Below, piece after piece: positions 2,092 through 42,667 of a DNA stretch of 64,000 nt. The DNA lies in NCBI GenBank assembly GCA_963707215.1, contig CAVPPB010000001.1, positions 544,001-608,000 of the forward strand. The letters run 5' to 3'. The notes beneath the pieces are model-generated. The model was not told the DNA's origin and did no database searches. It worked only from the letters and a program-made list of their open reading frames with translations. The DNA is from an uncultured Chloroflexia bacterium (GTDB lineage Bacteria > Chloroflexota > Limnocylindria > Limnocylindrales > CSP1-4). The position numbers and the translations under genes were made by a program. The stretch's first letter is position 1, and the number at the start of each line of letters is the position of its first letter.

Positions 2092-3258
2092 CTAGATCCG
2101 ACCCTTGGGAACGGTGTGCCAGTACGTCTTGTTGAAGACGATCTTGCCGAAGTGGAAGAGCGCGTTCGGCTTGCGCGGACGCGGTGGGTGGTCGTAGTCG
2201 AACTGGAGGATCGTGCCCTTGCCGTCCCCGATCTCGAAGAAGCACATGACCTTGCCTTCGTACTCGCCGTGCTTCTTGTCGGTCGCCCGCGCCTGGATCG
2301 CGGCCGAGATCCGCTCGGCTACCACCGGGGCCTCGAAGTGGGCCGTGGAGCCGGCCTTCGAGAGGGGCAGGTCGGTCGCGTCGCCGAGCGCGTGGACGTT
2401 CTTCCGCCCGCCGACCTCGAGGGTGTGGCGGTCGGTCGGCAGCCAGCCGCCCGGTGCGGGAGCCAGACCCGAGTCCATGAGGAACTGGGCGCCCTTGTGC
2501 GGGGGCACGAGGATGAGCAGGTCGTACTCCAACTCCTCGCCCTCGAGGCTTTGGACGACCTTGCGCTCGGGGTCGATGGTCTCGACGTTGAAGAAGGTGT
2601 GGAGCTCGATCCCCTTCTCCTCGAGGATCGGGGTCGCCATCTCCGAGACGCTCTCGATGGTGAAGGCACGGCCGATCGGCGAGCAGTAGTGGAGATCGCT
2701 CTTGTCCCGGAGACCGCGCTCGCGGAGCTCGGACTCGATGAGGAAGATGACCTCGAGCGGAGCGGGCGGGCACTTGTAGGGCATCGAGGCGATGCCGACC
2801 ACGACCTTGCCGCCCTTGAACCCGTCGAGCGCCTTGCGGAGCTTCTCGGCCGCGCCGGCGGAGTAGAAGTGATGGGCCTCGGTGTCGAAGTGCTCGATCG
2901 CCTCGGGCAGGATCCTGGACCCGGTGGCGAGGACGAGCTGGTCGTAGGCCAGGCGCTGTCCGTCGTTGAGCTCGACGATCTGGTTCGCCTCGTCGACCGA
3001 GACGACCTTGCCGATGACGAGCTGGACCCGCTTGTCGAGGAGCGACCGCTCCGGTCGGACCAGGTTCTCCTTCTTCTCGGGACGCTTGCCGCCCATGGCG
3101 ATGTACATGAAGCCCGGCTGGTAGACATGCTTCCCGGTCGCGTCGACGACCGTGACGGTCACGTCACCGCGCTTCACCTCGCGGTGGAGCTTGCGGACGA
3201 GGAGGTTGGCGGTCAGCGTGCCGCCGACCCCTCCGCCCAGGATGAGGATGCGCTGCAT
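2092..3258 (-). CDS. sqr: Sulfide:quinone oxidoreductase-like FAD-dependent oxidoreductase (type III/SqrC-like)
   Basis: GGGVGG Rossmann motif, HVYQPG, PYKCPPAPLE, GDATDLP.SKAG and YEGKVMCF (two catalytic-type Cys); lies in a TusA/DsrE cluster. Confidence 0.8.
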   Translation of the reverse strand: MQRILILGGGVGGTLTANLLVRKLHREVKRGDVTVTVVDATGKHVYQPGFMYIAMGGKRPEKKENLVRPERSLLDKRVQLVIGKVVSVDEANQIVELNDGQRLAYDQLVLATGSRILPEAIEHFDTEAHHFYSAGAAEKLRKALDGFKGGKVVVGIASMPYKCPPAPLEVIFLIESELRERGLRDKSDLHYCSPIGRAFTIESVSEMATPILEEKGIELHTFFNVETIDPERKVVQSLEGEELEYDLLILVPPHKGAQFLMDSGLAPAPGGWLPTDRHTLEVGGRKNVHALGDATDLPLSKAGSTAHFEAPVVAERISAAIQARATDKKHGEYEGKVMCFFEIGDGKGTILQFDYDHPPRPRKPNALFHFGKIVFNKTYWHTVPKGRI

Positions 3259-3273
3259 CGATGATCCCTTCGC

Positions 3274-3522
3274 CTAGCGCAGCTTCTCGACGACCAGCTC
3301 GTCGTAGCCGTCGCGCGTCTCGAGGACGACCAGGCGGTGCCCGGCCTTCTCGATCCACTTCGGGATGTCGACCTTGGAGCCCGAGTCGGAGCTGTAGACG
3401 GCGAGGATGTCGCCCACGCTGGCCTCGCGGATCGCCCGGATGAGCTCCATCAAGGGGCCGGGGCAGAAGCTGCCGCGGGCATCGATCGTGCGGGTCACGG
3501 TGTAGGTCGCGCTTTCGGTCAC
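3274..3522 (-). CDS. tusA: TusA family sulfur carrier
   Basis: IDARGSFCPGPLMEL (CPxP), DSGSKVDIPKW, 82 aa. Confidence 0.9.
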   Translation of the reverse strand: MTESATYTVTRTIDARGSFCPGPLMELIRAIREASVGDILAVYSSDSGSKVDIPKWIEKAGHRLVVLETRDGYDELVVEKLR

Positions 3523-3617
3523 GGAGGGTCTTCCTTCCTTGGTTCGGCTCGGGCGCGCCCGGATCGGGCCTGGCGCACCCGTGATGGTGTCGGCGTGGCG
3601 GCTCGCGCTCGCCGGTT

Positions 3618-4181
3618 TCAGATGAACAGCGGGGAGCTGCCGTCCTGCATCATCCCGATGACAGTGGCGGCTCCGACCGGCTCGCCCATCCCATCGATGA
3701 GGTCGTCGCGGGTCAGGCCGAACATGTCCATCGTCATCTGGCAGGGGATGAACTCGACGCCCATCAGCTGGGCTGCCTCGAGGAGCTCCTTGGGGCTGGC
3801 CACGTTGTGCTGCTTGGCCAGCTTCCGCATCATCCAGGGGCCCATCCCGAGGAAGTTCATCTTCGAGAGCTTGCGGTGGCTGATCCCCGGCCGCTGCATG
3901 AAGGACATCATCTTCTGCATCCAGTTCTGGCCGGTGATGCGTCGATCGTCCTTGACGAAGTTCTGGAGGCCCCAGAAGGTCACGAAGACGCTCGTCTTGG
4001 CGCCCATCGCCCCGGCCGTCGAGGCCAGGATCATCGTGGCCCAGGTCTTCTCCAGCTCGCCGCTGTAGTCGATGATCAGGATGTCGTGGGGCTTCGCCTC
4101 GTGCTCGTGCTCGGGCACGGGCTGCGGCTGGGTCGTCTCCTCGACCACGGCGGCGGTCTCGACCTCGGCGGTAGCGGTCAT
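3618..4181 (-). CDS. DsrE/DsrF/DrsH-like (DsrE2-type) sulfurtransferase
   Basis: FVTFWGL, LSKMNFLGMG, PCQMTMDMFG, VGAAT motifs; ATG at 4181. Confidence 0.88.
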   Translation of the reverse strand: MTATAEVETAAVVEETTQPQPVPEHEHEAKPHDILIIDYSGELEKTWATMILASTAGAMGAKTSVFVTFWGLQNFVKDDRRITGQNWMQKMMSFMQRPGISHRKLSKMNFLGMGPWMMRKLAKQHNVASPKELLEAAQLMGVEFIPCQMTMDMFGLTRDDLIDGMGEPVGAATVIGMMQDGSSPLFI

Positions 4182-4192
4182 GGCTGTGTCCC

Positions 4193-5295: not shown

Positions 5296-5340
5296 CAGTG
5301 CGGATGGGCCCTTCCGCAGGGCCGAGCGGCACGGGGGCCC

Positions 5341-5354
5341 GGGCCGGAGGTCCC
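5341..5354. promoter_or_regulatory. DosR-type box upstream of the sulfur operon
   Basis: GGGCC-GGAG-GTCCC. Confidence 0.5.
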
Positions 5355-5425
5355 GGCCTCGCGCGGGCCACCTGGTCCCGTCGCGGCGCGGGCCCTGAGC
5401 CGGCGCTGCTCGACCTCGCGAGTCC

Positions 5426-12180: not shown

Positions 12181-13890
12181 TCAGACGACCCGGATCTCGA
12201 CGGACGAGCCGCGCGCCGGGTCGTGGACGTGCACGGCGCAGGCCATGCAAGGATCGAAGGAGTGGACGGTCCGAAGCACCTCGACCGGCTTGGTCGGGTC
12301 GGCGATCGGTGTCCCGATCAGGGCCTCCTCCCAGGCGCCGCGGTTGCCCGCGGCGTCACGGGGTGAGCCGTTCCAGGTCGAGGGGACCACGAACTGGTAG
12401 TTCTCGATGTTCTGGCCGTCGATGACGATCCAGTGGCCCAGCGAGCCGCGCGGCGCCTCCTCGAGGCCGAAGCCCTCGGCCCGCTCGGGCCAGCTCTTCG
12501 GGTCCCAGAGAGAGACGTCGGCGATGGCCAGGTCGCCGCGGTCGAGGTTCGCCGACAGCTCCTCGAGCCAGGTCGGCAGGCGAGCCGCCAGGACCTGGGT
12601 CTCGACCGCCCGGGCCGCGATCCGGCCGAGGGTGCTGAAGAGCGCCTCCGGACCGACGCCGAGGGCGCCCAGGACGCCGTCGACCGCGGCCTTGACCTCG
12701 GCGTTGCCGGCCACGTAGGCAACCAGCATCCGGGACAGCGGACCGACCTCCATCGGCTGGCCGTCGTAGCGGGGCGCCTTGAGCCAGCTGTACTTGTCGA
12801 ACCCCTCGAGGGTGTCGAACGGCGGTGTCGGGCCCGCGTACCTCGGGTTGGTCTCGCCCTGGCCCGGGTACTTGAGGGCGGCGTCGTCGTCGCTGTACTC
12901 ATAGTACGAGTGGGCGACCGTCTCGGCGATCTTGGTCGGGTCGACGTCCACGACGGTGGAGATGTCGCGGGCCATGATCCGGCCGCGCGGCAGGTAGAAC
13001 GCCGACGGCTGGCCGGAGTCGTCCTCCGGGAACTCGCCGTAGGACATGTAGTTGCCGATGCCGGCGCCGATGCCGGCCCAGTCCTTGTAGAACCCGGCCA
13101 CCGCCAGGACGTCCGGGATGTAGACCCGGTCCACGAAGTCCTTGGCCTTCTGGAGGAGGCTGGCGACCTCCGAGATGTGGCGGGCATTGAACGCGGTCGG
13201 CGAGTTCGGGTCGAGACCCAGGGCCATGCCGCCGACGACGTAGGTCTGGGGGTGCGGGTTCTTGCTGCCGAGCAGGGCGTGGATCCGGATGACCTCGCGC
13301 TGCCAATCGAGCGCCTCGAGGTAGTGGGCGACCGCCAGGAGGTTGGCCTCGGGCGGCAGCTTGTAGGCCGGGTGGCCCCAGTAGCCGTTGGTGAACGGGC
13401 CGAGCTGGCCCGAGTCGACGTAGGCCTGGAGCTTGGCCTTGACGCCCTCGAAGTACGAGACGCTCGAGAGCGGCCAGTCGCTGATCGACTGGGCCAGGCG
13501 CGAGGTGGCCAGCGGCTCGGCGCTGAGGGCCGACACGACGTCGACCCAGTCCAGGGCGTGCAGGTGGTAGAAGTGGATGACGTGGTCCTGGACGTACTGG
13601 ATGCCGGCGATGAGGTTGCGGACCAGGCGGGCGTTGGTCGGGATCCGGATGTCCAGGGCGTTCTCCACGGCCCGGACCGAGGCCAGGGCATGGACCGTGG
13701 TGCAGACGCCGCAAGCCCGCTGGGCGAAGACCCAGGCATCGCGCGGATCGCGACCCTTGAGGATCAGCTCGAGCCCGCGGAACATCGTCCCCGAGCTCCA
13801 GGCGTCGGTCACCGCGCCGCCGGAGACCTCGACCTCGATCCGCAGGTGACCTTCGATCCGGGTGATCGGGTCGATGGCGATCCGGGTCAT
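12181..13890 (-). CDS. Group 1 membrane-bound [NiFe]-hydrogenase large subunit
   Basis: DPITRIEGH, L1 motif QRACGVC, L2 motif SFDPCMACAVH followed by a cleavable C-terminal tail. Confidence 0.97.
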   Translation of the reverse strand: MTRIAIDPITRIEGHLRIEVEVSGGAVTDAWSSGTMFRGLELILKGRDPRDAWVFAQRACGVCTTVHALASVRAVENALDIRIPTNARLVRNLIAGIQYVQDHVIHFYHLHALDWVDVVSALSAEPLATSRLAQSISDWPLSSVSYFEGVKAKLQAYVDSGQLGPFTNGYWGHPAYKLPPEANLLAVAHYLEALDWQREVIRIHALLGSKNPHPQTYVVGGMALGLDPNSPTAFNARHISEVASLLQKAKDFVDRVYIPDVLAVAGFYKDWAGIGAGIGNYMSYGEFPEDDSGQPSAFYLPRGRIMARDISTVVDVDPTKIAETVAHSYYEYSDDDAALKYPGQGETNPRYAGPTPPFDTLEGFDKYSWLKAPRYDGQPMEVGPLSRMLVAYVAGNAEVKAAVDGVLGALGVGPEALFSTLGRIAARAVETQVLAARLPTWLEELSANLDRGDLAIADVSLWDPKSWPERAEGFGLEEAPRGSLGHWIVIDGQNIENYQFVVPSTWNGSPRDAAGNRGAWEEALIGTPIADPTKPVEVLRTVHSFDPCMACAVHVHDPARGSSVEIRVV

Positions 13891-15050: not shown

Positions 15051-15147
15051 CGCTCGCCCTCACGAATGGCCGCCCGCCGCACTCGCCGGCGAGCGCCCGG
15101 CCTCGTTGGATGGGGGGATGGTGGAGGGCCGTCCGGCGATCTCGTAT

Positions 15148-16313: not shown

Positions 16314-16314
16314 G

Positions 16315-31598: not shown

Positions 31599-33637
31599 CA
31601 CATGCCCTCCCGGGCGAAGACGTGGGAGAGCTGGGCCAGGGAGAAGACCGGGCCGTCACGGCAGATGAAGAAGGGCCCCAGCTGGCAGTGGCCGCACAGG
31701 CCGATGCCGCACTCCATATGTCGCTCCATCGTCACGAAGACCCGGTCGGGCGTGAGACCGCGCTCGTAGAGGGCCTCCGCCGTAGCGGCCATCATCCGCT
31801 CGGGGCCGCAGACGAAAGCCACGGCCCGCGAGCCGTCCCAGGTCGCCCGATCGAAGAGGTGGGTCACGATGCCGACCGGGCCCGTCCAGCCGGACTCGAC
31901 CCCCGCCCGGTCGACCGTCACGGCCACCTCGAAGTCGTCCCGGCCGGCGAGCCGCTCGAGATCGTCGGCGAACAGGAGGTCCCGGGGCGTCCGGGCCCCG
32001 TAGTAGAGGCGGATGGACCCGAAGCGGAGCCGCTGGGCAAGGACAGCGTCGAGCAGCGGCCGCAGCGGGGCGAGCCCGATGCCGCCGGTGACCACGATGA
32101 CGTCGCGACCGACCGCCCGCTCGACCGGCCAATCGGTCCCGAGGGGTCCGCGGAGCCCCAGCTCGTCGCCCCGCGCCAGGCCGATCAGCTGGGTCGTTGC
32201 CGGCCCGGCCGCCCGGATCGTCAGCTCGATACCGTCCGGACGGTAGCGACTGATCGAGATCGGCAGCGGCGGGAAGCCCGGCAGGTCGACCATCACGAAC
32301 TGCCCCGGGGCACCGGCCGGGAAGGCTGGGTCCAGTCGGTCGAGGACCAGGGTCGAGACATCGGCCGTCTCCGGGCGGATCGCCCGGACCCGGGCCACCG
32401 TGTAGGCGGCCGGGGTCGTCGCAGCGGGCTCAAGGTCCGCGGCCCGGACCTCCAGTGGCGGGGCCACGGTGGCCAGTTCCTCGCGGACGTCGATGCCGAC
32501 CGGGCACCAGGTGATGCAGCGTCCGCAGCCGACGCAGCCGGACGTCCCGAACTGGTCGATCCATGTCGCGAACTTGTGGGTCAGCCACTGGCGATAGCGG
32601 TCCCTGGCGCGGCTGCGGAAGTTGCCCCCGGCGACCTTGGCGAAGCCGATCGTGAAGCAGCTGTCCCAGGTCCGTTCGCTGGTGCTGACCTTCCCGTCGA
32701 GGTCGGAGCGCTGGACCACGCTGCTGCAGAAGCATGTGGGGCAGACCAGGGTGCAGTTGCCGCAGGTGAGGCAGCGGGTGGCGGTCCCGAGCCAGCGGGG
32801 GCTGTCCCACTGGGCCAGCAGGCGGTCGTGGAGTCCCTCCGTCTCGACCGGGTCACCGATGGCGACCCGGACGGCCTCGACCTGGCGACCGGCCTCGAGG
32901 ATCCGTTCCGGCGACGCGGCCGCGAGGGGGAGATGGGCCAGGACCTCCGCTCCCGCCGCGGTACCGGCCCTGACCACGAAGCCGTCGTCGAGCTCCGAGA
33001 GGACGAGGTCGGCCCCGTCGCGTACCTCGGGACCCGTGCCCATCGAGGTGCAGAAGCAGGTCCCGCCGGCGACCGAGCACTCGACCGCCACGATGAACTG
33101 CGCGGCCCGCCGCGCCCGGAAGTCATCGTCCGTGAACGGGCCACCGAGGAAGACCCGGTCCTGGATCGCCAGGCCGGCCAGCTCGCAGGCCCGCAGGCCG
33201 ATGGCTGCCACCCTGGGGGCGTCGGGCACCGCGGGCACGAAGCTGACCGAACCCTCATCCCGTGTCCCGACGGACAGCGGTACGTGCGGTGGGAAGGTCG
33301 TCCGCTTCACCCCGCCCGGGCCGACCGTGAACCGGAACTGCCGCGGATCGTCGTCGTCGCGCCCGAGACGGTATCTCCCGGGGGCCTGCTCGTCGCGCCA
33401 GCCACGCGGCAACTCGTCGGTGGAGGCGATCTCGTCGAACACGATGGCCCCATCCCTGACCGTCGGACCCAGGACGACCCGGCCGTCCGCCCGGAGGTGG
33501 TCGATCAGGACCTGGAGGTTGGCGCGGGCCAGGAACCAGGCCCCCTCGGTCGGGCCGGGATCGCGGCCTGGCGTACCGCCGGTGCTCCAAGCCTGCGACG
33601 GCGGGACCCGCGGGGTGGACATGGGGTGACCAGCCAT
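31598..33637 (-). CDS. Fused group 3b hydrogenase beta (4Fe-4S) + gamma (FAD/NAD(P), 2Fe-2S) subunit
   Basis: One ORF containing [23 protein letters not shown] and [12 protein letters not shown], then [20 protein letters not shown] and [11 protein letters not shown]. Confidence 0.9.
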
Positions 33638-33672
33638 GTCCGCATCGTCGGGGTCCCGACGATCCGAGGGCA

Positions 33673-33753
33673 GGGCCGCGGGTCGCCGGGCCTGCGTGCC
33701 GAGCGGACCGAGTGGGTGCAGGCAGGTCCCGACCGCCACCGGCCGTTCGGCCC
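33673..33753. promoter_or_regulatory. Four phased DosR-type boxes upstream of the group 3b hydrogenase
   Basis: Sites start at 33673, 33696, 33717 and 33740 (spacing 23/21/23). Best match is CGGCC-GTTC-GGCCC; the third site is weak. Confidence 0.5.
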
Positions 33754-33777
33754 CCGGCGGGGACCGAGTGGGCGACC

Positions 33778-34266
33778 CTACCAGGCAGCCTCGCCCTGGG
33801 CGGCGAAGAGGTCGAGGAGTTGCTCCCGCGTCGCGATGAGCCGCCGGGTGACGGCCTGGAGGAGGCGTGGATAGACGGTCGTGGCCAGGCGGCAGTCCGA
33901 GCGGAGCAGCCCCCGGAGAGCCGCGCCGTCGAAGGCGACCAGCTCGACCGGCTCGAGCGCCGTCGCGGTCGAGGTCGCCCGATGCGGCGTCGTCAGCGCA
34001 GACCAGCCGATGATGTCGCCTGGCTCGACGGTCAGGATCGTGACCGCGCCCCGCTCTGGGACCAGGACGCTCAGGGCCACCCGACCTTGGCGCACGATGC
34101 CGAAGACCGTGCTCTCCTCGCCCTCGCGGAGCAGCTCGTCTCCGGGCTCGTACCGATGGATGCGAGCGAGCTCCGCCAGGATGGAGCCGGCCTCTGCCGG
34201 CAGGTTGGCGCCGAACCAGGCCAGGGCGGGATCGTTGGCCGCGACCTGCCCATCACCGATGGCCAT
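33778..34266 (-). CDS. Cyclic-nucleotide-binding domain protein (Crp/Fnr-like, no HTH)
   Basis: LLREGE, GRVAL, PGDIIGWSAL, RLIATREQLLDL; typical partner of group 3b operons. Confidence 0.85.
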   Translation of the reverse strand: MAIGDGQVAANDPALAWFGANLPAEAGSILAELARIHRYEPGDELLREGEESTVFGIVRQGRVALSVLVPERGAVTILTVEPGDIIGWSALTTPHRATSTATALEPVELVAFDGAALRGLLRSDCRLATTVYPRLLQAVTRRLIATREQLLDLFAAQGEAAW

Positions 34267-34276
34267 CCGGGAGGCC

Positions 34277-34645
34277 TCAGGCCTCGAGCCTGCGGAGCTG
34301 CTCGACGAGTGCCGCCTCCGTCACCTCGCCGGCCGGCTCGACATCGACGAGCCGGTCGGGGTGGTGGAAGATCGCGACGTATTCGCGCTCCAGCTGGGTC
34401 CGCAGCCCGCTTGAGCCCATGATGAGTACCCGAGCCGCATCACCGACCTGGTGGGCGATACGGCCGAGGTAGGTCGCCTCGTCTTCGCTGCAGGTCACCC
34501 GGACGACGTCGACCCAGCCGCTCGCGGTCCTCCGAGCGACGATCGTCGTCTCCGGTCCGACCCAGGCGAGGGCCGCCACCCGTCGAAGCGGGTCGGTGGC
34601 AGTAGCAGGTGTCGTTGTCTCGGGAGCCCTATGTCGGCCCTGCAT
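34277..34645 (-). CDS. Hypothetical protein resembling small eRF1-domain-2/baeRF-like 'translational machinery' proteins
   Basis: VGDAARVLIMGSSGLRTQLE...RLVDVEPAGEVTEAALV pattern; GGAGG RBS. Confidence 0.5.
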   Translation of the reverse strand: MQGRHRAPETTTPATATDPLRRVAALAWVGPETTIVARRTASGWVDVVRVTCSEDEATYLGRIAHQVGDAARVLIMGSSGLRTQLEREYVAIFHHPDRLVDVEPAGEVTEAALVEQLRRLEA

Positions 34646-34692
34646 CGATGTACCTCCGGGTGAACTGTCCCTCCGGTCGGCGGGGAGAGCGT

Positions 34693-34706
34693 GTGCCGTC
34701 GGTCCC
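34693..34706. promoter_or_regulatory. DosR-type box
   Basis: GTGCC-GTCG-GTCCC upstream of the ORF starting at 34645. Confidence 0.45.
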
Positions 34707-34791
34707 GAAGCGTGGGTCGCACCGTCACGGGCGGCCGGGACCAGGAGAGCGGGCGTGCCGGGCCGCGAACCGGACCGGCTGATCGCCGGGC

Positions 34792-36132
34792 TCAGCTCGG
34801 CGCCGAGACGGAGCCGGCCGCCGCGATGATCGGCGCCAGGAGCGAGCCGAGCGAGGGCCCGGCCACCTCCTCGAGCTCGTAGCGGACGCGGACCACCGGC
34901 TTCTCGGGGTGCAGCACCCGGGTGAGATCGATCGGCGTGGCTGCCAGGACCAGGTCGGCGGGGACCGCGTTGAGGGTCGTCTCGAGCTCCTTCACCTGGG
35001 CATCGCCGTAGCCCATGGCGGGCAGGAGCGGGCCCAGAGCCGGGTACCTGGCAAGGGTCGCTGCGAGGGCGCCGGTCGCGAACGGCCGCGGATCGACGAC
35101 CTCGGCGGCCCCGAAGCGCTCGGCGGCCACGATCCCGGCCCCGAAGGTCATCCCGCCATGGGTCAGGGTCGGTCCGTCCTCGACGACCACGACGCGCTTC
35201 CCCGCGATGTCGCCACCCTCGAGGGCCAGCGCTGATCGAGCCTCGATCACCGTGGCATCGGGAGCCAGCTCGGCGACGCTGGCCCGGACGGTGGCCAGGC
35301 CCTCCGGGCTCGCCGAGTCGACCTTGTTGATGACGACGACGTCGGCCAGGCGCAGGTTGGTCTCGCCGGGGTGGTACCGGCGCTCGTCGCCCGGGCGCAA
35401 CGGGTCGACGACGACGACGGCCAAGTCGGGCCGATAGAAGGGCAGGTCGTTGTTGCCGCCGTCCCAGAGGACCACGTCGGCCTCGGACTCGGCGGCGGCA
35501 AGGATGGCCGCGTAGTCGACGCCGGCGAAGACGATCCGGCCGGCATCCAGGTGCGGCTCGTACTCCTCGCGCTCCTCGATCGTCGTCCGGTTCGCGTCGA
35601 GGTCACCGTACGAGGCGAACCGCTGGACCCGCTGGGCGGCAAGGTCGCCGTAGGGCATCGGGTGGCGGACCACAGCGGTGCGGAGCCCGGCAGCCTCGAG
35701 GATGGAGGCGACCCGACGCGTCGTCTGGCTCTTGCCCGAGCCCGTTCGAACGGCACATACCGAGACGACCGGTCGACTGCTCTGGAGCATCGTCCGGGTG
35801 GGTGCGTGGAGAACGAACTCGGCCCCCCCGGCCAGCGCCCGGCTGGCGGCGTGCATCACCGTCTCGTGGCTGACGTCGCTATAGCAGAAGGCGACCCGGT
35901 CCACCTGGCGCTCGCGGATGATGGCCTCCAGCTCGGCCTCGGGCTCGATCGCGATCCCCTCGGGGTAGAGCGGGCCGGCCAGCACCGCCGGATAGCGGCG
36001 ATCGTCGATGCCGGGGATCTGGGTGGCGGTGAAGGCGACGACCTCGACCGTCGGATCCTCGCGGTACAGGACGTTGAAGTCGTGGAAGTCACGCCCGGCC
36101 GCCCCCATGATCGCGACGCGGGTCCGGGTCAT
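34792..36132 (-). CDS. Cyclic 2,3-diphosphoglycerate synthetase-like P-loop GTPase
   Basis: IMGAAGRDFH, TATQIP, RTGSGKS, RHPMPYG, EEREEYE, WDGGNND, EDGPTLTHGGM. Confidence 0.88.
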   Translation of the reverse strand: MTRTRVAIMGAAGRDFHDFNVLYREDPTVEVVAFTATQIPGIDDRRYPAVLAGPLYPEGIAIEPEAELEAIIRERQVDRVAFCYSDVSHETVMHAASRALAGGAEFVLHAPTRTMLQSSRPVVSVCAVRTGSGKSQTTRRVASILEAAGLRTAVVRHPMPYGDLAAQRVQRFASYGDLDANRTTIEEREEYEPHLDAGRIVFAGVDYAAILAAAESEADVVLWDGGNNDLPFYRPDLAVVVVDPLRPGDERRYHPGETNLRLADVVVINKVDSASPEGLATVRASVAELAPDATVIEARSALALEGGDIAGKRVVVVEDGPTLTHGGMTFGAGIVAAERFGAAEVVDPRPFATGALAATLARYPALGPLLPAMGYGDAQVKELETTLNAVPADLVLAATPIDLTRVLHPEKPVVRVRYELEEVAGPSLGSLLAPIIAAAGSVSAPS

Positions 36133-36590
36133 CGAGCACCTCCATGGGCCATCGTCGGCCCTACGGGATGGGAACGCGCCTCGACCCTGGATCCGGCCGT
36201 GCCGGCCGCGCACAGGTCGCGAAGGCGACGCACGAGGGCGTCGCCCTCGATCTGCTTGAGCAGGACGGCCCCGACGCCGGCCTCGCCGGCCGAGCGGCGC
36301 GCATCGGCACTCCAGTAGGCCGCCAGCAGGGCGATCCGGCACGGCTCGATGCCATCGAGCGCGAGCAGGACCGCCTGCCAGCCTCCGTGCACGGCCGCAT
36401 CGACGACGACGACGTCCGGGTGCGTCTCGTCGGCGGCCCGGGCCGCGGTCCGGGCGGAGGACGCCACGCTGACGACGAACCCGTGGCGGGCGAGATGCGA
36501 CCGCAGCGCCTCCCCTGAGATGGCGTCGTCGCAGACGAGCAGGAGGGGACGGCGGGGTGCACCGGGAGGATGGGGCGCCGGCCGTTCCAT
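36129..36590 (-). CDS. Stand-alone atypical response-regulator receiver protein
   Basis: LLLVCDD, PDVVVVD, GAVLLK CheY-like pattern; stop overlaps the next ATG. Confidence 0.65.
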   Translation of the reverse strand: MERPAPHPPGAPRRPLLLVCDDAISGEALRSHLARHGFVVSVASSARTAARAADETHPDVVVVDAAVHGGWQAVLLALDGIEPCRIALLAAYWSADARRSAGEAGVGAVLLKQIEGDALVRRLRDLCAAGTAGSRVEARSHPVGPTMAHGGAR

Positions 36591-36626
36591 GGCCCCGAGG
36601 GTGCGCGTGGCCCCGGGTCGGTCATA

Positions 36627-36774
36627 GGGACGACGGACCCGTTCGTCCGGTCCGTCCGGCCCGCCGGACCCGGGCTCGGCTGGTGACCTTCAGCGGCGGC
36701 GGCCCCCCTGCCGGGCTGGCCCTCGGATTCGTGACCTTCGGCCCATCCCCCACCCTGTCCGGGCTGGGCACGAT
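36627..36774. promoter_or_regulatory. Divergent promoter region with DosR-type boxes
   Basis: GGGAC-GACG-GACCC (36627), GGTCC-GTCC-GGCCC (36649, 22 bp later), GTGAC-CTTC-GGCCC (36731); + strand CACGAT (36769-36774). Confidence 0.55.
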
Positions 36775-36780
36775 GCGGTC

Positions 36781-36855
36781 CGAGGTGGGTGCCGGAGGGG
36801 ACGCCCGGTGCCCACCCCGAACCCTCGTCGCGCGGCGACGGGGGCTTCTTCGTCT
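36781..36855 (+). ncRNA. Candidate small RNA (two hairpins, the second terminator-like)
   Basis: 12-bp stem 36784-36795/36805-36816 and 10-bp stem 36822-36831/36835-36844 followed by CUUCUU. G-U pairs form only on the + strand. Starts just after the promoter. Confidence 0.5.
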
Positions 36856-36990
36856 CCGGGCTCGATCGCCAGCACCGCTGCACGATCGGCAGCCCGGGCG
36901 GTGGTCCCGGCTATCGCCCCGGGGGTCAAGGCCGACGCGGTCGCTGCGACGTCGGGCAGGGCGGCCGAGGCTCGGACGGACCGGCGAACC

Positions 36991-38262
36991 TCACAACCAG
37001 TGGGTGGTCCTGGCCTGGGCGAGGAGATCCTCGCGGAAGTCCGGATGCGCGATCCCGATCAGCTCGAGCGCCCGCTCCCGGACCGACTTGCCCCACAGCT
37101 GGGCGACCCCCCACTCGGTCACGATCGTGCGCGCATGGCCCCGGGTCGTCACGACGCCGGCGCCCTCCTTGAGGAACGGGGCGATCCTCGACACCCGACC
37201 GCCGGCTGCCGTCGACGGCAGGACGATGATGGCCTGGCCTTCGGCCGCCAGGGTCGCCCCGCGGACGAAGTCCATCTGGCCGCCGATCCCGCTGTACATC
37301 TGCCAGCCGATGGAGTCGGCCACGACCTGGCCGGTCAGGTCGACCTCGATGGCCGAGTTGATCGAGACCATCCGCGAGAACGAGCGGATGACATGGGTGT
37401 CGTTGGTGAAGTCGACGGCCCGCATCTCGACCATCGGGTTGTCGTGGACGAAGTCGTAGAGGCGCTGCGTGCCCATCAGGAACGCGGCGACGATCTTGCC
37501 CCGGTTGCGCTCCTTGCGGGCCCCCGTGACCACGCCCTTCTCGACGAGGTCGACGACCACGTCGGTGAACATCTCGGTGTGGATCCCGAGGTCCCGCTTG
37601 TGGGCCAGGGCCAGGGCGACCGCGGCCGGGATGGCGCCGATGCCCATCTGGACCGTCGCTCCGTCCGGGATGAGATCGGCCACGAACTCGCCGATCCGGC
37701 GCTCCAGGTCCCCGATCTCCGGCACCGGCCGCTCGTAGGGCGGCTCGTGGACCTCCACGCCGAGGTCGATCTGGTTCACGTGGATGAACGACTCGCCGAG
37801 GGTGCGGGGCATGGCCGAGTTGAACTGGACGATGACCGTCCGGGCGGCGTCGATGGCGGCCTGCATCGCCTCCACTGAGACCCCCAGCGAGCAGAACCCG
37901 TGGGCATCCGGGGGGGTCGCGTTGACCAGCACCGCGTCGAGGGGGATGATCCGGCGCTTGAAGAGGACCGGCACGTCGGACAGGAAGGTCGGGATGAAGT
38001 CGGCCCGACCCTCGTTGACGGCCCCGCGGGCATTCGGGCCGATGAAGAGGGCCCGATGGCGGAAGTGCGGAGCCATCTCCGGCGCCAGGTGCGGACCCGG
38101 ACCCTCGGTGTGCAGATGGATCATCTGGACGTCGCGGAGCTCGGGAGCCCGGGCCACCAGGGCGTCGAGGAGGACGCTGGGGGTGGCGGCGGCGCACTGG
38201 ACGTAGACGGTCTGGTGTGAGCGGATCCCGGCGACGGCCTCGCCGGGGGTGACGATCCTCAT
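36991..38262 (-). CDS. Acetyl-CoA hydrolase/transferase (4-hydroxybutyrate CoA-transferase family)
   Basis: QMGIGAIP, LGIHTEM (catalytic Glu), INSAIEVDLTGQ, GIGGQMDF, IAHPDFRE. Confidence 0.93.
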   Translation of the reverse strand: MRIVTPGEAVAGIRSHQTVYVQCAAATPSVLLDALVARAPELRDVQMIHLHTEGPGPHLAPEMAPHFRHRALFIGPNARGAVNEGRADFIPTFLSDVPVLFKRRIIPLDAVLVNATPPDAHGFCSLGVSVEAMQAAIDAARTVIVQFNSAMPRTLGESFIHVNQIDLGVEVHEPPYERPVPEIGDLERRIGEFVADLIPDGATVQMGIGAIPAAVALALAHKRDLGIHTEMFTDVVVDLVEKGVVTGARKERNRGKIVAAFLMGTQRLYDFVHDNPMVEMRAVDFTNDTHVIRSFSRMVSINSAIEVDLTGQVVADSIGWQMYSGIGGQMDFVRGATLAAEGQAIIVLPSTAAGGRVSRIAPFLKEGAGVVTTRGHARTIVTEWGVAQLWGKSVRERALELIGIAHPDFREDLLAQARTTHWL

Positions 38263-38269
38263 GTCGGCC

Positions 38270-38334
38270 AGTCTACGGGCGGTGACCGAGAGGCCGTGCG
38301 GGCCGAACGGACCGGGGCCGGGGCCGCGTGTCCT
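38270..38334 (-). promoter_or_regulatory. Leaderless promoter with paired DosR-type boxes
   Basis: TAGACT 7 nt before the ATG; GGGCC-GAAC-GGACC (38300) and GGGCC-GCGT-GTCCT (38321). Confidence 0.55.
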
Positions 38335-38361
38335 GCCGATGGACCGGCCGGTGGCGGGCGC

Positions 38362-39036
38362 CTAGGCCCCGCCGCCGCCGATGCGGTGCTTGGCGACGAA
38401 CGCGGCCGCCTGGGCCCGACGTTCCAGGTTGAGCTTCGAGAGGATCGAGCTCACGTAGTTCTTGACGGTCTTGTCCGACAGGAAGACCTCGGCGGCGATC
38501 TCCTTGTTCGTCTTGCCCTCGGCCACCAGCAGGAGGATCTTCTGCTCCTGGGCGGTGAGCTGAGCGAGCTCATCGGTATAGGCGCCGGTGGCGATCCGGC
38601 GGACCCGGTCGAGGACCTTCTCCGTGACCGCCGGGTCGAGAAGCAATTCGCCACGGCCGACGCTCTCGAGGGCGGCGACGAGGTCGCGGGCCCGGATCTG
38701 CTTGAGGAGGTACCCGGACGCGCCCGCGACGATCGCCGACAGCACGGCCTCCTCGTCCGGGTAGCTCGTCAGCATGACCACCCGGGTGGCCGGCAGCTCC
38801 GCCCGGATCTCCCGGCAGGCCTCGATCCCGGAACCGTCGGGCAGTCGGACGTCCATGATCACGATGTCGGGCTGGAAGCGGCGGGTCTGCTCCAGGGATT
38901 CGGCGACCGACCCCGCCTCCGCCACGACCTGGAATCCCGCACGGCGGTCAAGGAGGGCCACGAGGCCTTGGCGGACGACCTCATGGTCGTCGACCACGAG
39001 GAGCCGCAGCGGCCGGGCCTGGGACGTCTCGGTCAC
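38362..39036 (-). CDS. DosR/DevR-like NarL-family response regulator
   Basis: VDDHEVVRQGL, DVRLPDGSGIEACR, LTSY.DEEA, AGASGYLLK, TNKEIA..FLSDKTVKNYVSSILSKL..RRAQAA (DosR-like HTH). Confidence 0.9.
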   Translation of the reverse strand: MTETSQARPLRLLVVDDHEVVRQGLVALLDRRAGFQVVAEAGSVAESLEQTRRFQPDIVIMDVRLPDGSGIEACREIRAELPATRVVMLTSYPDEEAVLSAIVAGASGYLLKQIRARDLVAALESVGRGELLLDPAVTEKVLDRVRRIATGAYTDELAQLTAQEQKILLLVAEGKTNKEIAAEVFLSDKTVKNYVSSILSKLNLERRAQAAAFVAKHRIGGGGA

Positions 39037-39068
39037 GGGCGTCGATCCCTCCGTCAAGCCGGTGTCGA

Positions 39069-40724
39069 TCAGCTCGCGATCGAGTCCGGGTCACGTGATG
39101 GCAGTGTCACGATGATACGCGTACCGGCCCCGGGACCGCTCTCGATCGCGACGGCACCCCCGAGCGCGGTCGTCCGACCGCGGATATTGGCGAGGCCCTG
39201 ATGCGAGGGCCCCCGGACGAACTCCGGGTCGAAGCCCCGCCCGTTGTCGGCGATCTCCATCCGAAGCGAGCCATCGGATTCGGCCTCGACGCGCATCGCA
39301 GCCCGGCTGGCGTCGGCATGCCGGGCGATGTTCGAGAGGGCCTCCCGGGCGATCAGGAGCAACTGGAGCCGCGCCTCGGCGGGGAGCTCGCGATCGACGT
39401 CGCTCCCCACGACGAGGTCGATGTCGATCAACGTGTTGAGGCGGAACTCCTCGGCCAGGCCGGCCAGGCCGGTCGGCAGGTCGGCATCCACGAGGAGCTC
39501 CGGCCGAAGGCCGAAGATGAAGTTGCGGATGTCCCGGATCGCGAGGTTCAGTGATTCGATGGCCCGGTCGACGCGCTCGGCCGCCTCGGGCGGGCTCTCG
39601 TCCATCAGGTCGGGCACGTCCTCCAGCGAAAGGCCCACGGCATAGAGCCGCTGGATGATCCCGTCGTGGAGGTCGCGGCCGATCCGCTCCCGTTCCTCGA
39701 CGATGGCCAGGCGCTGGACCCGCTCGTGAAGGCGAGCGTTCTCGATGGCGATGCCGGCGTGGCGGGCGAACAGCTCGACGAACTCCTGGTCGGCTTCGGT
39801 GAACTCGTCCGCCCCGTGCTTGTCGGTCAGGTAGAGGTTGCCGACCGCGACCCCCTTGACTTCGATCGGGACCCCCAGGAACGAGCGCATGACGGGGTGG
39901 TCGGGCGGGAAGCCGGCACGCCGCGGATCGGCGGTGACGTCTGGGATGCGCACGGAGCCGCTGTGGAGGAGGTCCCCGAGGATGCCTCGGCCACGCGGCG
40001 GGGTGCCCACCCGGTCGCGCTCCTCCTGGGTCATGCCCGAGGTGATGAAGCGCTCCATCGCGCCGCGCTCGTCGAAGAGCCCGAGAGCCGCGTAGGACGC
40101 GTCGGAGAGGTCGCGGACGGTGTCGACGATGAGCTGGAGGACCCGGTCAAGGGACAACACGCCGGCGATCGCCCGGGTGGCCGTGTCGAGGGCAGCCAGT
40201 CGCTCGACCGTCCGGTGCATCCGGGCCCGGGTCCAGCCGGCCGCAAGGGCCAGCTCCACGGCCCGGACCGCGTAGGCGGCCGTCGGGTCGGGCCGGTCGA
40301 GCCAGAGGTCGCCGAGCAGGACGGCCGGGTCGCTGGCCGACAGCTCGTAGCGAACGAGATCCCCGGTGGCCGTCCCGGTCGGGACCTCGTCGGCCAGCGA
40401 TCCATCGCCGATGGCGATGGCCGGGAGCGGCTCCGCGTGCACGATGAGCCTGGCTCCCCGGGCGCGACAGGCCCGGACGAGGGCGGTCAGGGCCCGCTCG
40501 AGCCGGGCCTGGCGCTCGACGTCCGGCTCCTGCAGCCAGGCGTCCAACGCATCGAGGGCGACGACGACGGGGAATGCGTCGGCGCCGGGCGACGTTTCGG
40601 CCAGGGGGACGGCGACGGCCACCGGCACGACGCCCTCGGCCGGGTCGCCGGCCACGCCGAGCGCGCGGCCGGTCTCCGCGGGACGGTCCGCCGGGTCGGA
40701 CGCGGGGGGCGCACTCGGGTCCAT
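39069..40724 (-). CDS. DosS/DevS-like GAF-domain histidine kinase (HisKA_3)
   Basis: GAF segment P.GRGILG...GFPPDHPVMRSFLGVPI...GNLYLT; ERERIGRDLHD; EALSNIARHA; DNGRG; GLANI. Confidence 0.9.
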   Translation of the reverse strand: MDPSAPPASDPADRPAETGRALGVAGDPAEGVVPVAVAVPLAETSPGADAFPVVVALDALDAWLQEPDVERQARLERALTALVRACRARGARLIVHAEPLPAIAIGDGSLADEVPTGTATGDLVRYELSASDPAVLLGDLWLDRPDPTAAYAVRAVELALAAGWTRARMHRTVERLAALDTATRAIAGVLSLDRVLQLIVDTVRDLSDASYAALGLFDERGAMERFITSGMTQEERDRVGTPPRGRGILGDLLHSGSVRIPDVTADPRRAGFPPDHPVMRSFLGVPIEVKGVAVGNLYLTDKHGADEFTEADQEFVELFARHAGIAIENARLHERVQRLAIVEERERIGRDLHDGIIQRLYAVGLSLEDVPDLMDESPPEAAERVDRAIESLNLAIRDIRNFIFGLRPELLVDADLPTGLAGLAEEFRLNTLIDIDLVVGSDVDRELPAEARLQLLLIAREALSNIARHADASRAAMRVEAESDGSLRMEIADNGRGFDPEFVRGPSHQGLANIRGRTTALGGAVAIESGPGAGTRIIVTLPSRDPDSIAS

Positions 40725-40765
40725 GCCGGGAGGGTAGCATCGGGACGGCCCTCGCCGACCACCGG

Positions 40766-40801
40766 GGGCCACCCGGACCGCGAGCGCGGGACATGGGTCA
40801 C
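40766..40801. promoter_or_regulatory. Paired DosR-type boxes between the kinase and multicopper oxidase genes
   Basis: GGGCC-ACCC-GGACC (40766) and GGGAC-ATGG-GTCAC (40788, 22 bp later). Confidence 0.55.
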
Positions 40802-40838
40802 TATCGGGTCAGCAAGGAGGTACGGGAGCATCCCGCGC

Positions 40839-42158
40839 ATGTCTACCAACGAGCCGCAGGTCAACCTGCACCCCGATCCCGCCGCCCCGTCCGAGGCGGA
40901 TCCTGATCGAGCGAGCCAGGTCGCCGCGCCCCCCAGCGGGCTCGTGGTGCCGAGCGACGGCACCCTGTCCCGACGAGGATTCCTGGGCGCCGCGGCCGTC
41001 GCCGGAGGCGGAATCGTGGCCGCCACCGTTGCCGCCTGCACGCCGGCGGCCGGCGCCGGCTGGACCTTCGGTCCGACCTTCGTCCCGGGGGCAGCGGCCT
41101 CCCCCACCCCCGTGCCGTCGGCCGATGCCTCGGCCGCACCCTCGGCCGCGCCCAGCGCTTCCCCGGCGCCCAGCGGCCCACCGCTGCCGTCCGGCTGGTC
41201 GGAACATGACCTGCGAGCCCAGGAGAGGGTCCGCCGCTTCGTCGGCAACCTGGCCGGCCCGCTCGGCATGGGCGAGTTCCTCGACGACCCCCTGGGTCCG
41301 CCGACCGAGGACCCCGAGTTCACCAAGGTCCCCCAGGGCAACCAGCCACTGGAGCCCACGATCGACGGCGACACCAAGGTCTTCGACATCACGGTCGAGG
41401 AGATGGACTGGCCGATCGACGCCGAGCTTCCCCCGCTCAAGGCCCTCGGCTACAACGGCACCTGGCCCGGCCCGGCCATCAGGGTCACCGAAGGCGACAA
41501 GGTCCGCATCAACGTCAAGAACAACCTGCTCGAGACGACCGGCGTCCACTGGCACGGCCTGGAGCCGGAGGACTTCAAGCAGGACGGGATCCCCTTCGTG
41601 ACCCAGCTCCCGATCGTCCCCGGCCAGACCTTCACCTACGAGTTCGTGGCCCGACCCTTCGGATCGCACATGTACCACTCGCACCACAACGCGACCGACC
41701 AGGTGGGTCGCGGCCTTCTGGGCGCCTTCATCGTCGAGCCGGCAGACGTCGCCGAGTCCTACGCGCAGAAGTACGGCGTGACCCAGGAGGTCATCTTCAT
41801 CCACAACGACGCCCTCGGCGGCTTCACCATCAACGGCCACGGCTTCCCGGCCACGACGCCGATCGTCGCCAAGCTCGGCGAGAAGGTGTTGATCCGCTAC
41901 ATGAACGAGGGCACGATGATGCATCCGTGGCACACCCACGGGTTCCGCCAGCGGGTCGTGGCCCGGGACGGGGCCCCGCTGGGTGGCGCGGAGTTCTTCT
42001 GCGACACCCTGGGGGTCAACCCCGGCGAACGGTTCGACGCGATCGTGGATTGCGATCGACCGGGCGTTTGGGCCTTCCACTGCCACATCCTCCCCCACGT
42101 CGAGGGTCTCGACGGCATGTTCGGCATGGTGACGGCGCTCGTCGTCCTGCCCGAATGA
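40839..42158 (+). CDS. Tat-exported (possibly lipoprotein) two-domain multicopper oxidase
   Basis: SRRGFLG Tat motif, VAAC possible lipobox, HWHG, MYHSH, HPWHTHG, HCHILPH...M. Confidence 0.88.
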   Translation: MSTNEPQVNLHPDPAAPSEADPDRASQVAAPPSGLVVPSDGTLSRRGFLGAAAVAGGGIVAATVAACTPAAGAGWTFGPTFVPGAAASPTPVPSADASAAPSAAPSASPAPSGPPLPSGWSEHDLRAQERVRRFVGNLAGPLGMGEFLDDPLGPPTEDPEFTKVPQGNQPLEPTIDGDTKVFDITVEEMDWPIDAELPPLKALGYNGTWPGPAIRVTEGDKVRINVKNNLLETTGVHWHGLEPEDFKQDGIPFVTQLPIVPGQTFTYEFVARPFGSHMYHSHHNATDQVGRGLLGAFIVEPADVAESYAQKYGVTQEVIFIHNDALGGFTINGHGFPATTPIVAKLGEKVLIRYMNEGTMMHPWHTHGFRQRVVARDGAPLGGAEFFCDTLGVNPGERFDAIVDCDRPGVWAFHCHILPHVEGLDGMFGMVTALVVLPE

Positions 42159-42175
42159 GCTGACCGGCAGGACCG

Positions 42176-42667
42176 ATGACGTCGACGGGACCCGAGTCAC
42201 CGCAAGGAGCCCCGGCCGGATCCGGCACGCTCCTGCTGGCGACCGACCTGTCGACGGCGTCGGCAGCGGCCACCGCCGCGGCCTTCGACCTGGCCGCCCG
42301 TCTCAGCTCGTCGCTCCTCATCGTCAGCGTCATCGACCCGGGTCAGCTGCGCCTGCCGGGTGGCCGATTCGGCTCGCGGGTCGACCAGATCCGGGCCCAG
42401 CAGGAGGCGGCCGCCCAGGAGCTCGTCGGGCGGGGTCGCCGCCTCGGCGTCTCCGTCGCGTTCCTGATCTGGGAGGGTGACCCGGGCGAATCGATCATCG
42501 AAGCCGCGACCGCGGAGCGGGTCGAGATGATCGTGGTCGGGAGCCACGGCCGGGGCGGGGTCGGTCGCGCCCTCATCGGGAGCGTATCGGACCACGTCGT
42601 CCGCCATGCGTCATGCCCGGTCCTGGTGGTTCGCCAGGACGTCGAGGAGGGACGCGTCGCCGGCTGA
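42176..42667 (+). CDS. Universal stress protein
   Basis: LLATDLS, EGDPG, IVVGSHGRGG...IGSVSDHVVRHASCPVLVVR. Confidence 0.93.
   Translation: MTSTGPESPQGAPAGSGTLLLATDLSTASAAATAAAFDLAARLSSSLLIVSVIDPGQLRLPGGRFGSRVDQIRAQQEAAAQELVGRGRRLGVSVAFLIWEGDPGESIIEAATAERVEMIVVGSHGRGGVGRALIGSVSDHVVRHASCPVLVVRQDVEEGRVAG

Follow-up and report, generated by a model that had tools for sequence, protein, structure and literature searches.

The DevR/DosR regulon of Mycobacterium tuberculosis is spread over nine dispersed blocks, to which Rv2626c, Rv2630, Rv2631 (RtcB) and Rv1997 belong (excerpts of PMC5309233), and according to passages of PMC3177182 every promoter of it carries two to four tandem Dev boxes whose helical phase is required, the sites at tgs1 being centred at -42.5 and -63.5. 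In Streptomyces coelicolor, the OsdR/OsdK system has a consensus, AGGGCCGATCGGCCCT, that was tested by electrophoretic mobility shift assay and is said to conform to the DevR box; its sites are known to cluster around the regulator gene, the system is linked to development, and the excerpted text mentions no hydrogenase or sulfur cargo (PMC5069765). In Mycobacterium smegmatis, a hypoxia-induced cluster with a copy of devR (msmeg_3932-3955) lies directly beside the group 3b hydrogenase Hyd3 (msmeg_3931-3927), and Hyd1 is also induced at low O2 (parts of PMC2799521). Clustered DosR-type regulons thus have precedents in S. coelicolor and M. smegmatis, and the concept itself is not novel. A full-text literature search for DosR/DevR together with Chloroflexi or Chloroflexota returned nothing on the topic among the matches listed. 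Here we analyse a 64,000-nucleotide (nt) stretch of DNA (the window; G000:C1:544001-608000) from a 3.26-Mb genome (5 contigs, 72% G+C) of an uncultured Limnocylindria bacterium (Chloroflexota), and propose, with a probability of roughly 0.8, that a ~40-kb island in it (positions 2092-42667) is the core of a DevR/OsdR-type two-component regulon.

The likeness of the island to the M. tuberculosis system comprises an identical recognition helix in the regulator, a kinase whose haem-type GAF domain keeps the His and Tyr, a box in which the critical G and C are those of DevR, tandem in-phase boxes with the proximal one predicted near -42, and predicted autoregulation. It also takes in the universal stress protein (USP), CBS, RtcB/archease and Ca-type P-ATPase families, which in M. 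tuberculosis belong to the Rv2623-Rv2631 and Rv1996-Rv1998c blocks (excerpts of PMC5309233). The differences are that box position 4 is mostly C here and not A (0.70 versus 0.24), that the host belongs to the Chloroflexota, that its kinase has one Pfam GAF domain plus an N-terminal region without a family, and that 9-10 promoters lie within 40 kb rather than in dispersed blocks. The cargo goes beyond that of M. tuberculosis with a group-1-like hydrogenase, sulfide:quinone reductase (SQR)/TusA/DsrE, Vor and a multicopper oxidase (MCO). The S. coelicolor system, an actinobacterial one, is compared here by its box and has the same consensus, and the M. smegmatis clusters rest on expression data, whereas the island described here is known from sequence alone. 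If our reading is correct, a regulon known mainly as the tuberculosis dormancy switch would extend to an abundant, uncultured environmental phylum; the box, its tandem phasing and autoregulation appear to be conserved across that distance.

A DevR-like regulator and a DevS-like kinase

The putative regulator (38362-39036, minus strand, 224 amino acids) is a DosR/DevR/OsdR-like response regulator of the NarL type (Pfam Response_reg at residues 13-123, GerE helix-turn-helix at 159-213). Its best PDB match is DevR of M. tuberculosis (3C3W, E 1.6e-56, residues 11-216), and among solved structures DevR (194 bits) scores above VraR (156) and NarL (121); NCBIfam, which has no DevR model, gives NarL as the best match, below its cut-off. 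The recognition helix, KTVKNYVS, is identical in the regulator and in 3C3W. In DevR, the DNA-contact residues of this helix are Lys-x-x-Lys-Asn. The genome contains about 30 matches to the regulator, and the full helix was found in none of the nine paralogues examined. The phospho-acceptor Asp, numbered Asp54 in DevR (excerpts of PMC3029386), is kept as well, 'imDVRLPDG' of the regulator being aligned to 'vlDVRLPDG' of DevR. Orthologues with 81-98% identity are present in 16 of 18 genomes of the same family, and all 12 genomes (G019-G030) of a small-genome (~1.1 Mb) sister family of the same order, f2, give only paralogue-level matches (E 1e-13 to 1e-16).

Upstream, with 32 bp between its stop and the regulator start, lies a DosS/DosT-like kinase (39069-40724, minus strand) with a haem-type GAF domain (192-335), HisKA_3 and HATPase_c (Pfam). 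Residues 192-335 match GAF-A of DosT/DevS (2VZW, 2W3D) at E 1e-30. The segments 'dHPvMRsFLGVP' and 'GNLYLTDK' keep a His aligned to the DevS haem ligand and a Tyr aligned to the distal Tyr, which by our count along the 2W3D chain we take to be His149 and Tyr171. These structure matches bear out the first-pass annotation, which had placed a DosR-like regulator and a DosS-like kinase at 38362-40724. The N-terminus of the kinase varies among relatives, many tblastn matches beginning at residues 137-190. Haem-type GAF matches (E 1e-15 or better) occur in 131 of 301 sampled Chloroflexota genomes, a tally that includes G000 and G175 (flagged unpublished), and in neither of the two searched genomes of family f2.

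A search with the kinase places metagenome-assembled genomes of Candidatus Limnocylindrales or Chloroflexota closest among named public records, so that the lineage, rightly suspected from the start to be non-mycobacterial, is not even actinobacterial. The best relative, L001, has a kinase 84% and a regulator 98% identical to those of the island.

A shared box enriched in the island

Genes were called with a simple custom codon-usage caller, a crude one that assigned 81-86% of the DNA to genes. Palindrome-constrained de novo expectation maximization on the 16 promoter-bearing intergenic regions of the island yielded a 14-bp palindrome, GGGCCGnnCGGCCC, and a separate run on 41 regions upstream of island orthologues in relatives (the near-identical L001 excluded) yielded the same. 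The matrix built from the relatives only (73 sites) was used for all bit scores of island sites given here. The box equals the OsdR consensus introduced above. In the relatives' matrix the best-conserved half-site positions are G3 (0.88) and C5 (0.97), corresponding to G5 and C7, which passages of PMC3177182 report as essential for DevR.

The box had first been described as GGGAC-N4-GTCCC and as present in most island promoters. A shared box is indeed there, at least 8.5 bits strong in 9 of 16 promoter-bearing intergenic regions compared with 205 of 1541 elsewhere (Fisher P 7e-5), and the listed sites look like it, but the literal form was wrong and the real one is that of OsdR. With up to two mismatches the literal pattern is not enriched across the window (95 matches versus 131 +/- 12 expected), and exact matches in the island are zero. 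At most one mismatch gives 6 matches in the 2,864 bp of island intergenic DNA (2.1/kb), 76 in 462 kb of other intergenic DNA (0.16/kb) and 0.16/kb in island coding DNA; a count of exact gapped palindromes in island versus other intergenic DNA was too insensitive to show the motif. As for the 20 individual sites listed at first, 14 reach at least 8.5 bits, those at 15170, 15920 and 36627 are weak (6.5-7.3 bits), and those at 28654, 33673 and 33717 (at most 5.4 bits) are unsupported; sites at 5319, 5365 and 23560 had been overlooked.

With the relatives-only matrix, the island intergenic regions hold 13 sites of at least 9 bits, compared with 1.18 expected from other intergenic DNA (P 5e-10); at 8, 9 and 10 bits the counts are 16, 13 and 10 versus 2.1, 1.2 and 0.7 predicted (P about 1e-9). 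In the coding DNA of the island, the box count is at or below background. The enrichment also holds against a shuffled background, 15 sites of at least 8.5 bits being observed while 1000 dinucleotide-preserving shuffles of the 17 island intergenic regions gave a mean of 1.4 and a maximum of 7. The proposed physical clustering in ~40 kb is confirmed by sliding 40-kb windows along the genome: the eight best of 617 all overlap the island (10-16 sites), the median is 2-3 and the next best has 9.

Phasing and promoter geometry

Pairs of intergenic sites of at least 7 bits peak at a spacing of 21-24 bp, which accounts for 20 of the ~47 pairs found at 10-60 bp (5 in the island, 15 elsewhere), whereas pairs in coding DNA have a flat spacing distribution. 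For the island, 5 phased pairs compare with 0.012 in dinucleotide shuffles. The 21-23-bp phasing noticed at the outset thus holds, as a peak at 21-24 bp that is confined to intergenic DNA. Tandem boxes occur at five island promoters (5319/5341/5365, 15126/15148/15170, 36627/36649, 38300/38321 and 40766/40788) and only a single site at three (28677, 34693 and 36731). Relatives show a spacing of 22-23 bp too, as at the dosS promoters of G012, G018, L002 and L004.

Many genes of the window look leaderless, lacking a Shine-Dalgarno sequence and having a TANNNT hexamer 12-13 nt before the start codon (e.g. starts at 38262, 40724 and 46079). Such a hexamer precedes the CoA-transferase, dosS, unk118 and a possible small open reading frame (ORF) starting at 28617; in the dosS promoters of relatives, TGCTAGGCT/TGCTACGCT occupies this position. 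At the promoters of a candidate small RNA (sRNA), the CoA-transferase and unk118, the centre of the proximal box lies 33-34 nt upstream of the centre of the -10-like hexamer. If transcription starts about 7 nt past the hexamer, the proximal box would be near -42 to -43 relative to the predicted start.

Conservation of the boxes in relatives

For a reciprocal test we used another matrix, built from the 20 sites first listed, unfiltered, with a threshold of at least 8.5 bits. A site was found in 29 of 41 regions upstream of island orthologues in relatives and in 31 of 157 other promoter regions at the same loci (odds ratio 9.8). By gene, relatives have a site upstream of USP in 9/10 cases, dosS in 9/13, REC in 3/3, CBS in 3/3, MCO in 3/3 and cNMP in 2/2; for the island-flanking genes the figures are 1/6 for Aldh, 1/5 for AT3 and 0/5 for CoAtrA, whose promoter site in the window (44466, 9.5 bits) was judged to be a chance occurrence. 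In a sister family of the same class, dosS is preceded by a strong box, no more than ~120 bp away, in 5 of 6 genomes.

Synteny, suggested as a check, gave a mixed answer. The core dosS-dosR-CoA-transferase plus USP is widespread among relatives, the CoA-transferase being syntenic with dosR in most of them, but the gene order around dosRS varies and the full island order is found only in G018 and L001. Since gene order varies and sites are kept upstream of orthologues across genera, the boxes follow the genes and not the neighbourhood.

A conserved, structured candidate small RNA

The candidate sRNA (36770-36855, plus strand) lies in the gap that separates two minus-strand genes, those of the CoA-transferase and REC. 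A box, GTGACCTTCGGCCC (36731-36744, 10.5 bits), stands about 42 nt upstream of its predicted start, followed by a -10-like ACGAT at about 36773, a 12-bp hairpin with the loop AGGGGACGC (36784-36816) and a terminator-like hairpin with a T-rich tail (36822-36844), all on the plus strand. A covariance model built from five copies detected it once each in 22 of 35 other genomes of the family and not at all in five genomes of family f2, with marginal matches only in two other families; by coordinate comparison, the copy usually lies 3-8 kb from dosS.

In an alignment of 26 instances, fitted to the model and thus favouring the structure, pairing in the stem reaches 99.7%, compared with 33-54% in slid controls, and compensatory changes are seen at 8 of 12 pairs; an earlier MAFFT alignment of the five copies gave 100% pairing and compensatory changes in 6 of 12 pairs. 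The plus strand is indicated by G-U pairs and by the model score (77.6 bits forward versus 21.3 reverse). A box of at least 9.6 bits lies upstream in all 26 instances, its centre 30-32 nt before the -10-like element in 22; the remaining four are truncated hits or show another box at this distance. In many copies a T-run follows the hairpin immediately. The sRNA is real as a conserved structured element, and its place in the regulon, already proposed, is supported. No Rfam family was found in the window at gathering scores, nor in 36650-36950 at E up to 1, and complements of the loop near gene starts formed no pattern.

In M. tuberculosis a DosR-regulated sRNA, DrrS, exists (excerpts of PMC5360333). 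Both sRNAs are linked to DosR-type systems, and the one described here matches no Rfam family. It is a candidate new sRNA family, the most novel element of the island and one not described before, and its unusually clean promoter is fit for reporter and binding assays.

Boxes and cargo along the island

At the left end of the island, three boxes (5319, 11.8 bits; 5341, 10.9; 5365, 7.5; spaced 22 and 24 bp; together 5319-5378) lie upstream of a minus-strand operon (5260-2092) for an ArsR-family regulator, DsrE-TusA-DsrE-TusA (two DsrE-like and two TusA proteins) and a type III SQR (Pfam; NCBIfam SQR type III below cut-off). In L003 the ArsR promoter has two boxes 22 bp apart, and in G016 there are sites upstream of DsrE. 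The operon of the group-1-like uptake [NiFe] hydrogenase (15050-5426, minus strand; small and large subunits, cytochrome b, protease and HypA/F/C/D/E by Pfam) is preceded by boxes at 15126 (6.8 bits), 15148 (10.1) and 15170 (7.3), spaced 22 and 22 bp, and the same region (15126-15255) has, towards the tRNA_edit gene, a further box at 15242 (9.6 bits). The orthologue in G018 has three boxes with the same 22/22-bp spacing, 87-131 bp upstream; this hydrogenase is sporadic, with matches in 3 of 20 other family genomes. Upstream of Fd-VorABG (16026-19060, plus strand; Pfam/NCBIfam) the box at 15920 is weak (6.5 bits).

Two boxes of 8.5 bits each (23560 and 23593), 33 bp apart and out of phase, lie between orf64-archease-RtcB (minus strand) and the Na/Ca exchanger-P-type ATPase genes (plus strand); in the G018 region upstream of orf64 the best score is 5.7 bits, which is no site. 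The strongest box of the island, GGGCCGTTCGGCAC (28677-28690, 15.1 bits), is upstream of CBS-YtfJ (28360-27418, minus strand; Pfam), possibly through a small ORF (28617-28357). The partner site once listed at 28654, 23 bp away, scores only 1.1 bits. Poorly conserved secondary boxes have been described for DevR (passages of PMC3177182), and 28654 would fit such a box, although the sequence itself lends this no support. The small ORF, 86 amino acids on the minus strand between the box and the CBS gene, was not called by the custom caller; it has TACCCT 12 nt before its ATG. Alternatively, the CBS gene may have a long 5' leader.

The group-3b-like [NiFe] hydrogenase operon (33622-28747, minus strand; FeS/NAD subunit, small and large subunits and maturation protease by Pfam) has boxes at 33696 (8.7 bits) and 33740 (10.1), 44 bp apart (33696-33753), and its orthologue in G018 has four sites upstream. 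A box at 34693-34706 (10.9 bits) is upstream of unk100 and the cyclic nucleotide monophosphate (cNMP)-binding protein behind it (34579-33778, minus strand; Pfam). Boxes at 36649 (9.9 bits) and, weakly, 36627 (6.5), 22 bp apart (36627-36662), precede a minus-strand operon that encodes a REC-only protein (36129-36590) along with a cobW-like P-loop protein (34792-36132). Upstream of an acetyl-CoA hydrolase/transferase (36991-38262, minus strand; Pfam; butyryl-CoA:acetate CoA-transferase-like by NCBIfam TIGR03948, below cut-off), boxes at 38300 (11.0 bits) and 38321 (10.2), 21 bp apart (38300-38334), are centred 44.5 and 65.5 nt before the ATG, and TAGACT stands 13 nt before it. The divergent promoter of dosS and MCO-USP has boxes at 40766 (9.9 bits) and 40788 (10.5), 22 bp apart (40766-40801). 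On the plus strand follow the MCO, with a twin-arginine-like leader (start placed by eye at about 40839; Pfam Cu-oxidase_3/_2), and the USP (42176-42667; Pfam Usp).

As to the predicted reach of the regulon, the group-1-like and 3b-like hydrogenases, the sulfur relay, the REC/cobW-like operon, MCO-USP and the sRNA are supported, whereas Vor has only its 6.5-bit site. Membership of archease and RtcB is weak, with two 8.5-bit sites that are out of phase, none in G018 and none before RtcB itself.

Predicted targets beyond the island

Genome-wide, 82 of 1557 promoter-bearing intergenic regions have a site that reaches 11 bits or else a phased pair, 6 of them in the island and ~76 elsewhere; among convergent intergenic regions, only 4 of 276 have a strong or phased site. 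The initial notion of one ~40-kb regulon is thereby retained as a clustered core and lost as a boundary: the sites are densest in the island, which forms the core of a larger regulon. We annotated 47 genes flanking 36 of the 76 outside regions, selected for having a phased pair or for a site score of 12.9 bits or more. Plausible members related to stress and redox are a second GAF-HisKA_3 kinase, CBS-BON, PPK2/rhodanese, PNPOx-like, flavodoxin, ferritin, cupredoxin, another multicopper oxidase, Mo-hydroxylase and a sigma factor. The list of outside targets is noisy since the motif is weak and two paralogues of the regulator may share it.

The second GAF-HisKA_3 kinase adjoins a NarL-type regulator (G000:C1:859512-861951, outside the window) sharing 40% identity with that of the island; its helix reads GTVKNHVH, and two in-phase boxes, the best of 13.3 bits, lie upstream. 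The pair may be a cross-regulated paralogous system.

A proposed mechanism and its alternatives

From the genes, the boxes and their enrichment, phasing and conservation, we infer a circuit with hypoxia as its signal. The haem-GAF histidine kinase would sense low O2, NO/CO or the redox state and phosphorylate the NarL-family regulator encoded beside it. Dimers of the regulator would bind the 14-bp boxes, which at most promoters come as two or three, 21-24 bp apart on one helix face, and from the proximal box (~-42) would bring in RNA polymerase in the manner of DevR. The direct targets predicted in the island are the regulator's own operon (autoregulation), MCO-USP, the CoA-transferase, the REC/cobW-like operon, the cNMP-binding protein, the 3b-like and group-1-like hydrogenases, the sulfide-oxidation/sulfur-relay operon, CBS-YtfJ and the sRNA; the ion pumps, archease/RtcB and Vor would be less certain members, and further targets would lie elsewhere in the genome. 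This provides a testable list for oxygen loss, upon which the two hydrogenases, sulfide oxidation, Vor and the CoA-transferase may switch on. For 33600-42700, the public runs listed as sharing words with this DNA were DNA runs with small shares, and none of those listed was an RNA run.

Several observations weigh against this reading. The box carries little information in DNA of 72% G+C, and strong sites are common outside the island (41 intergenic and 32 coding at 12 bits or more). Some of the outside boxes adjoin housekeeping genes such as parAB, mreD and ABC transporters, so that the genome-wide predictions are noisy or reflect other regulators. Within the island, RtcB and the radical-SAM gene are preceded by nothing that reaches 7 bits and YtfJ by no good site, and the Fd-Vor site is weak, as said above. 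At dosS, the box-to-hexamer distance is 39 nt, about 5 nt more than at the other promoters. In the kinase, Pfam sees one GAF (190-328) directly before HisKA_3 and not the tandem GAF-A/GAF-B arrangement; residues 1-191 match no Pfam family even at E up to 1, though a divergent GAF fold may lie there. Two paralogues of the regulator, whose recognition helices keep TVKN, may recognise similar boxes. Moreover, the relatives are kin, so that counts across them overstate independence, and all intergenic regions rest on the custom gene caller.

The alternative that survives best, though we consider it unlikely, accepts the regulator and its boxes and replaces oxygen limitation by another signal, such as sulfide, H2-linked redox, NO/CO or a ligand of the N-terminal domain of the kinase; the regulon would then be a programme for handling reductant and sulfide, not for dormancy. 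The cargo consists mostly of H2, sulfide and 2-oxoacid redox enzymes, the first 190 residues of the kinase have no family assignment and differ from relative to relative, and the classic mycobacterial members (nitroreductases, alpha-crystallin and triacylglycerol synthase) were not seen among the Pfam annotations of the island. However, the His and Tyr of the DevS haem pocket are conserved, and O2-sensitive enzymes (the 3b-like hydrogenase, Vor and radical-SAM) together with USP and CBS fit a low-oxygen programme. Whether DosS is a redox or an O2 sensor is itself debated, so that this alternative is a shade of the hypoxia reading.

An improbable alternative is that the boxes are bound mainly by another NarL-family paralogue, or by several, and that the island regulator controls few promoters. 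The genome has matches enough to the regulator for this, two of them with TVKN, one of which, with its GAF-HisKA_3 kinase, has phased boxes upstream, and many strong boxes lie far from the island. Yet the full DevR helix occurs only in the island regulator when compared with the nine paralogues, the boxes upstream of dosS are kept in the relatives and the sister family, and site density peaks around the island regulator gene. Finally, that the boxes are not protein sites at all but chance G+C-rich palindromes or hairpin-forming terminator or repetitive extragenic palindrome-like elements would suit the low information of the motif, the lack of window-wide enrichment of the literal pattern and the short hairpin that GGGCCG..CGGCCC can form, but is hardly credible in view of the shuffles (1.4 versus 15 sites, 0.012 versus 5 phased pairs), the avoidance of convergent regions, the sites kept upstream of orthologues where flanking DNA is unalignable and the fixed distance to -10-like elements.

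Returning to a DevR/OsdR-type regulon responding to low oxygen, we tentatively suggest something broader, although the odds are somewhat against it: the haem-kinase circuit might be old and widespread in Chloroflexota, not an actinobacterial speciality, and in Limnocylindria might tie the uptake and evolution of H2, the oxidation of sulfide and the fermentation of 2-oxoacids to low O2. It would include a post-transcriptional arm in the sRNA, a single hairpin of 45-80 nt with a nearly invariant purine-rich loop, GGAGGGGACGCC, whose promoter is, of all those in the regulon, the one most tightly linked to a box. More boldly still, this Shine-Dalgarno-like loop might titrate a C/U-rich partner (mRNAs or the anti-Shine-Dalgarno sequence of 16S rRNA), favouring the leaderless-looking mRNAs of the regulon in dormancy.

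Gene families and other features

For annotation, 50 ORFs were compared with Pfam and 19 with NCBIfam, and all gene families named in the first-pass annotation were found in their places; the island also contains Memo/radical SAM, RtcB, archease, a Na/Ca exchanger, a Ca-type P-ATPase, YtfJ, CBS and the tRNA_edit gene. The hydrogenase subgroups were typed by best family matches only: the group-1-like large subunit (12181-13890) is closest in NCBIfam to the Escherichia coli hydrogenase-1/2 (Hya/Hyb-type) large subunits and the 3b-like one (29334-30677) to sulfhydrogenase ShyA/HydA, in both cases below the curated cut-offs. The partner subunits, a cytochrome b and an FeS/NAD-binding subunit, are consistent with groups 1 and 3b, respectively, and the 195-residue protein at 28747-29334 is a hydrogenase maturation protease (NCBIfam).

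Counterparts of M. tuberculosis regulon genes, asserted at first one by one, hold at the level of families. The best PDB match of the USP is M. tuberculosis Rv2623 (2JAX/3CIS, E 1e-15), whereas for the CBS protein Rv2626c is not among the PDB matches at E 1e-8 or better; we rejected it as a specific Rv2626c counterpart, only the domain architecture being in common. The cobW-like protein (Pfam cobW, E 6e-5; no NCBIfam match) had been called cyclic 2,3-diphosphoglycerate synthetase (cDPGS)-like. The gene is there, and its tie to that enzyme is weak: the sole PDB match is cDPGS 9SXB (E 0.0015, 114 of 446 residues), and the nearest Atlas cluster carries the automatic name cDPGS family.

Just outside the island bounds, boxes at 45973 (11.4 bits) and 46029 (8.9) lie between a class III aminotransferase (minus strand) and unk118 (46079-46435, plus strand), together 45973-46042; the one at 46029 is centred 43.5 nt before the unk118 start codon, and TAGCGT stands 13 nt before that codon. 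The aminotransferase promoter (45859-46078) also contains a palindrome, TGCATA-N5/6-TATGCA, beside a -10-like element, GGCTATACT. Both are kept upstream of the aminotransferase orthologue in G009, G010, G011, G018 and L003, and the palindrome probably serves some other, local regulator as its operator. A 634-bp gap that borders the island on the left and in which no gene was called (1458-2091) has three similar inverted repeats, (G/T)ACCAG-N6-CTGGT(G), ~60-70 bp apart, and a single weak box at 1489 (7.4 bits). Elsewhere in the genome, outside the window (G000:C1:833669-834490), there is a second match resembling a hydrogenase small subunit (56% identity) with one in-frame TGA, which could be a pseudogene, two genes or a recoded codon.

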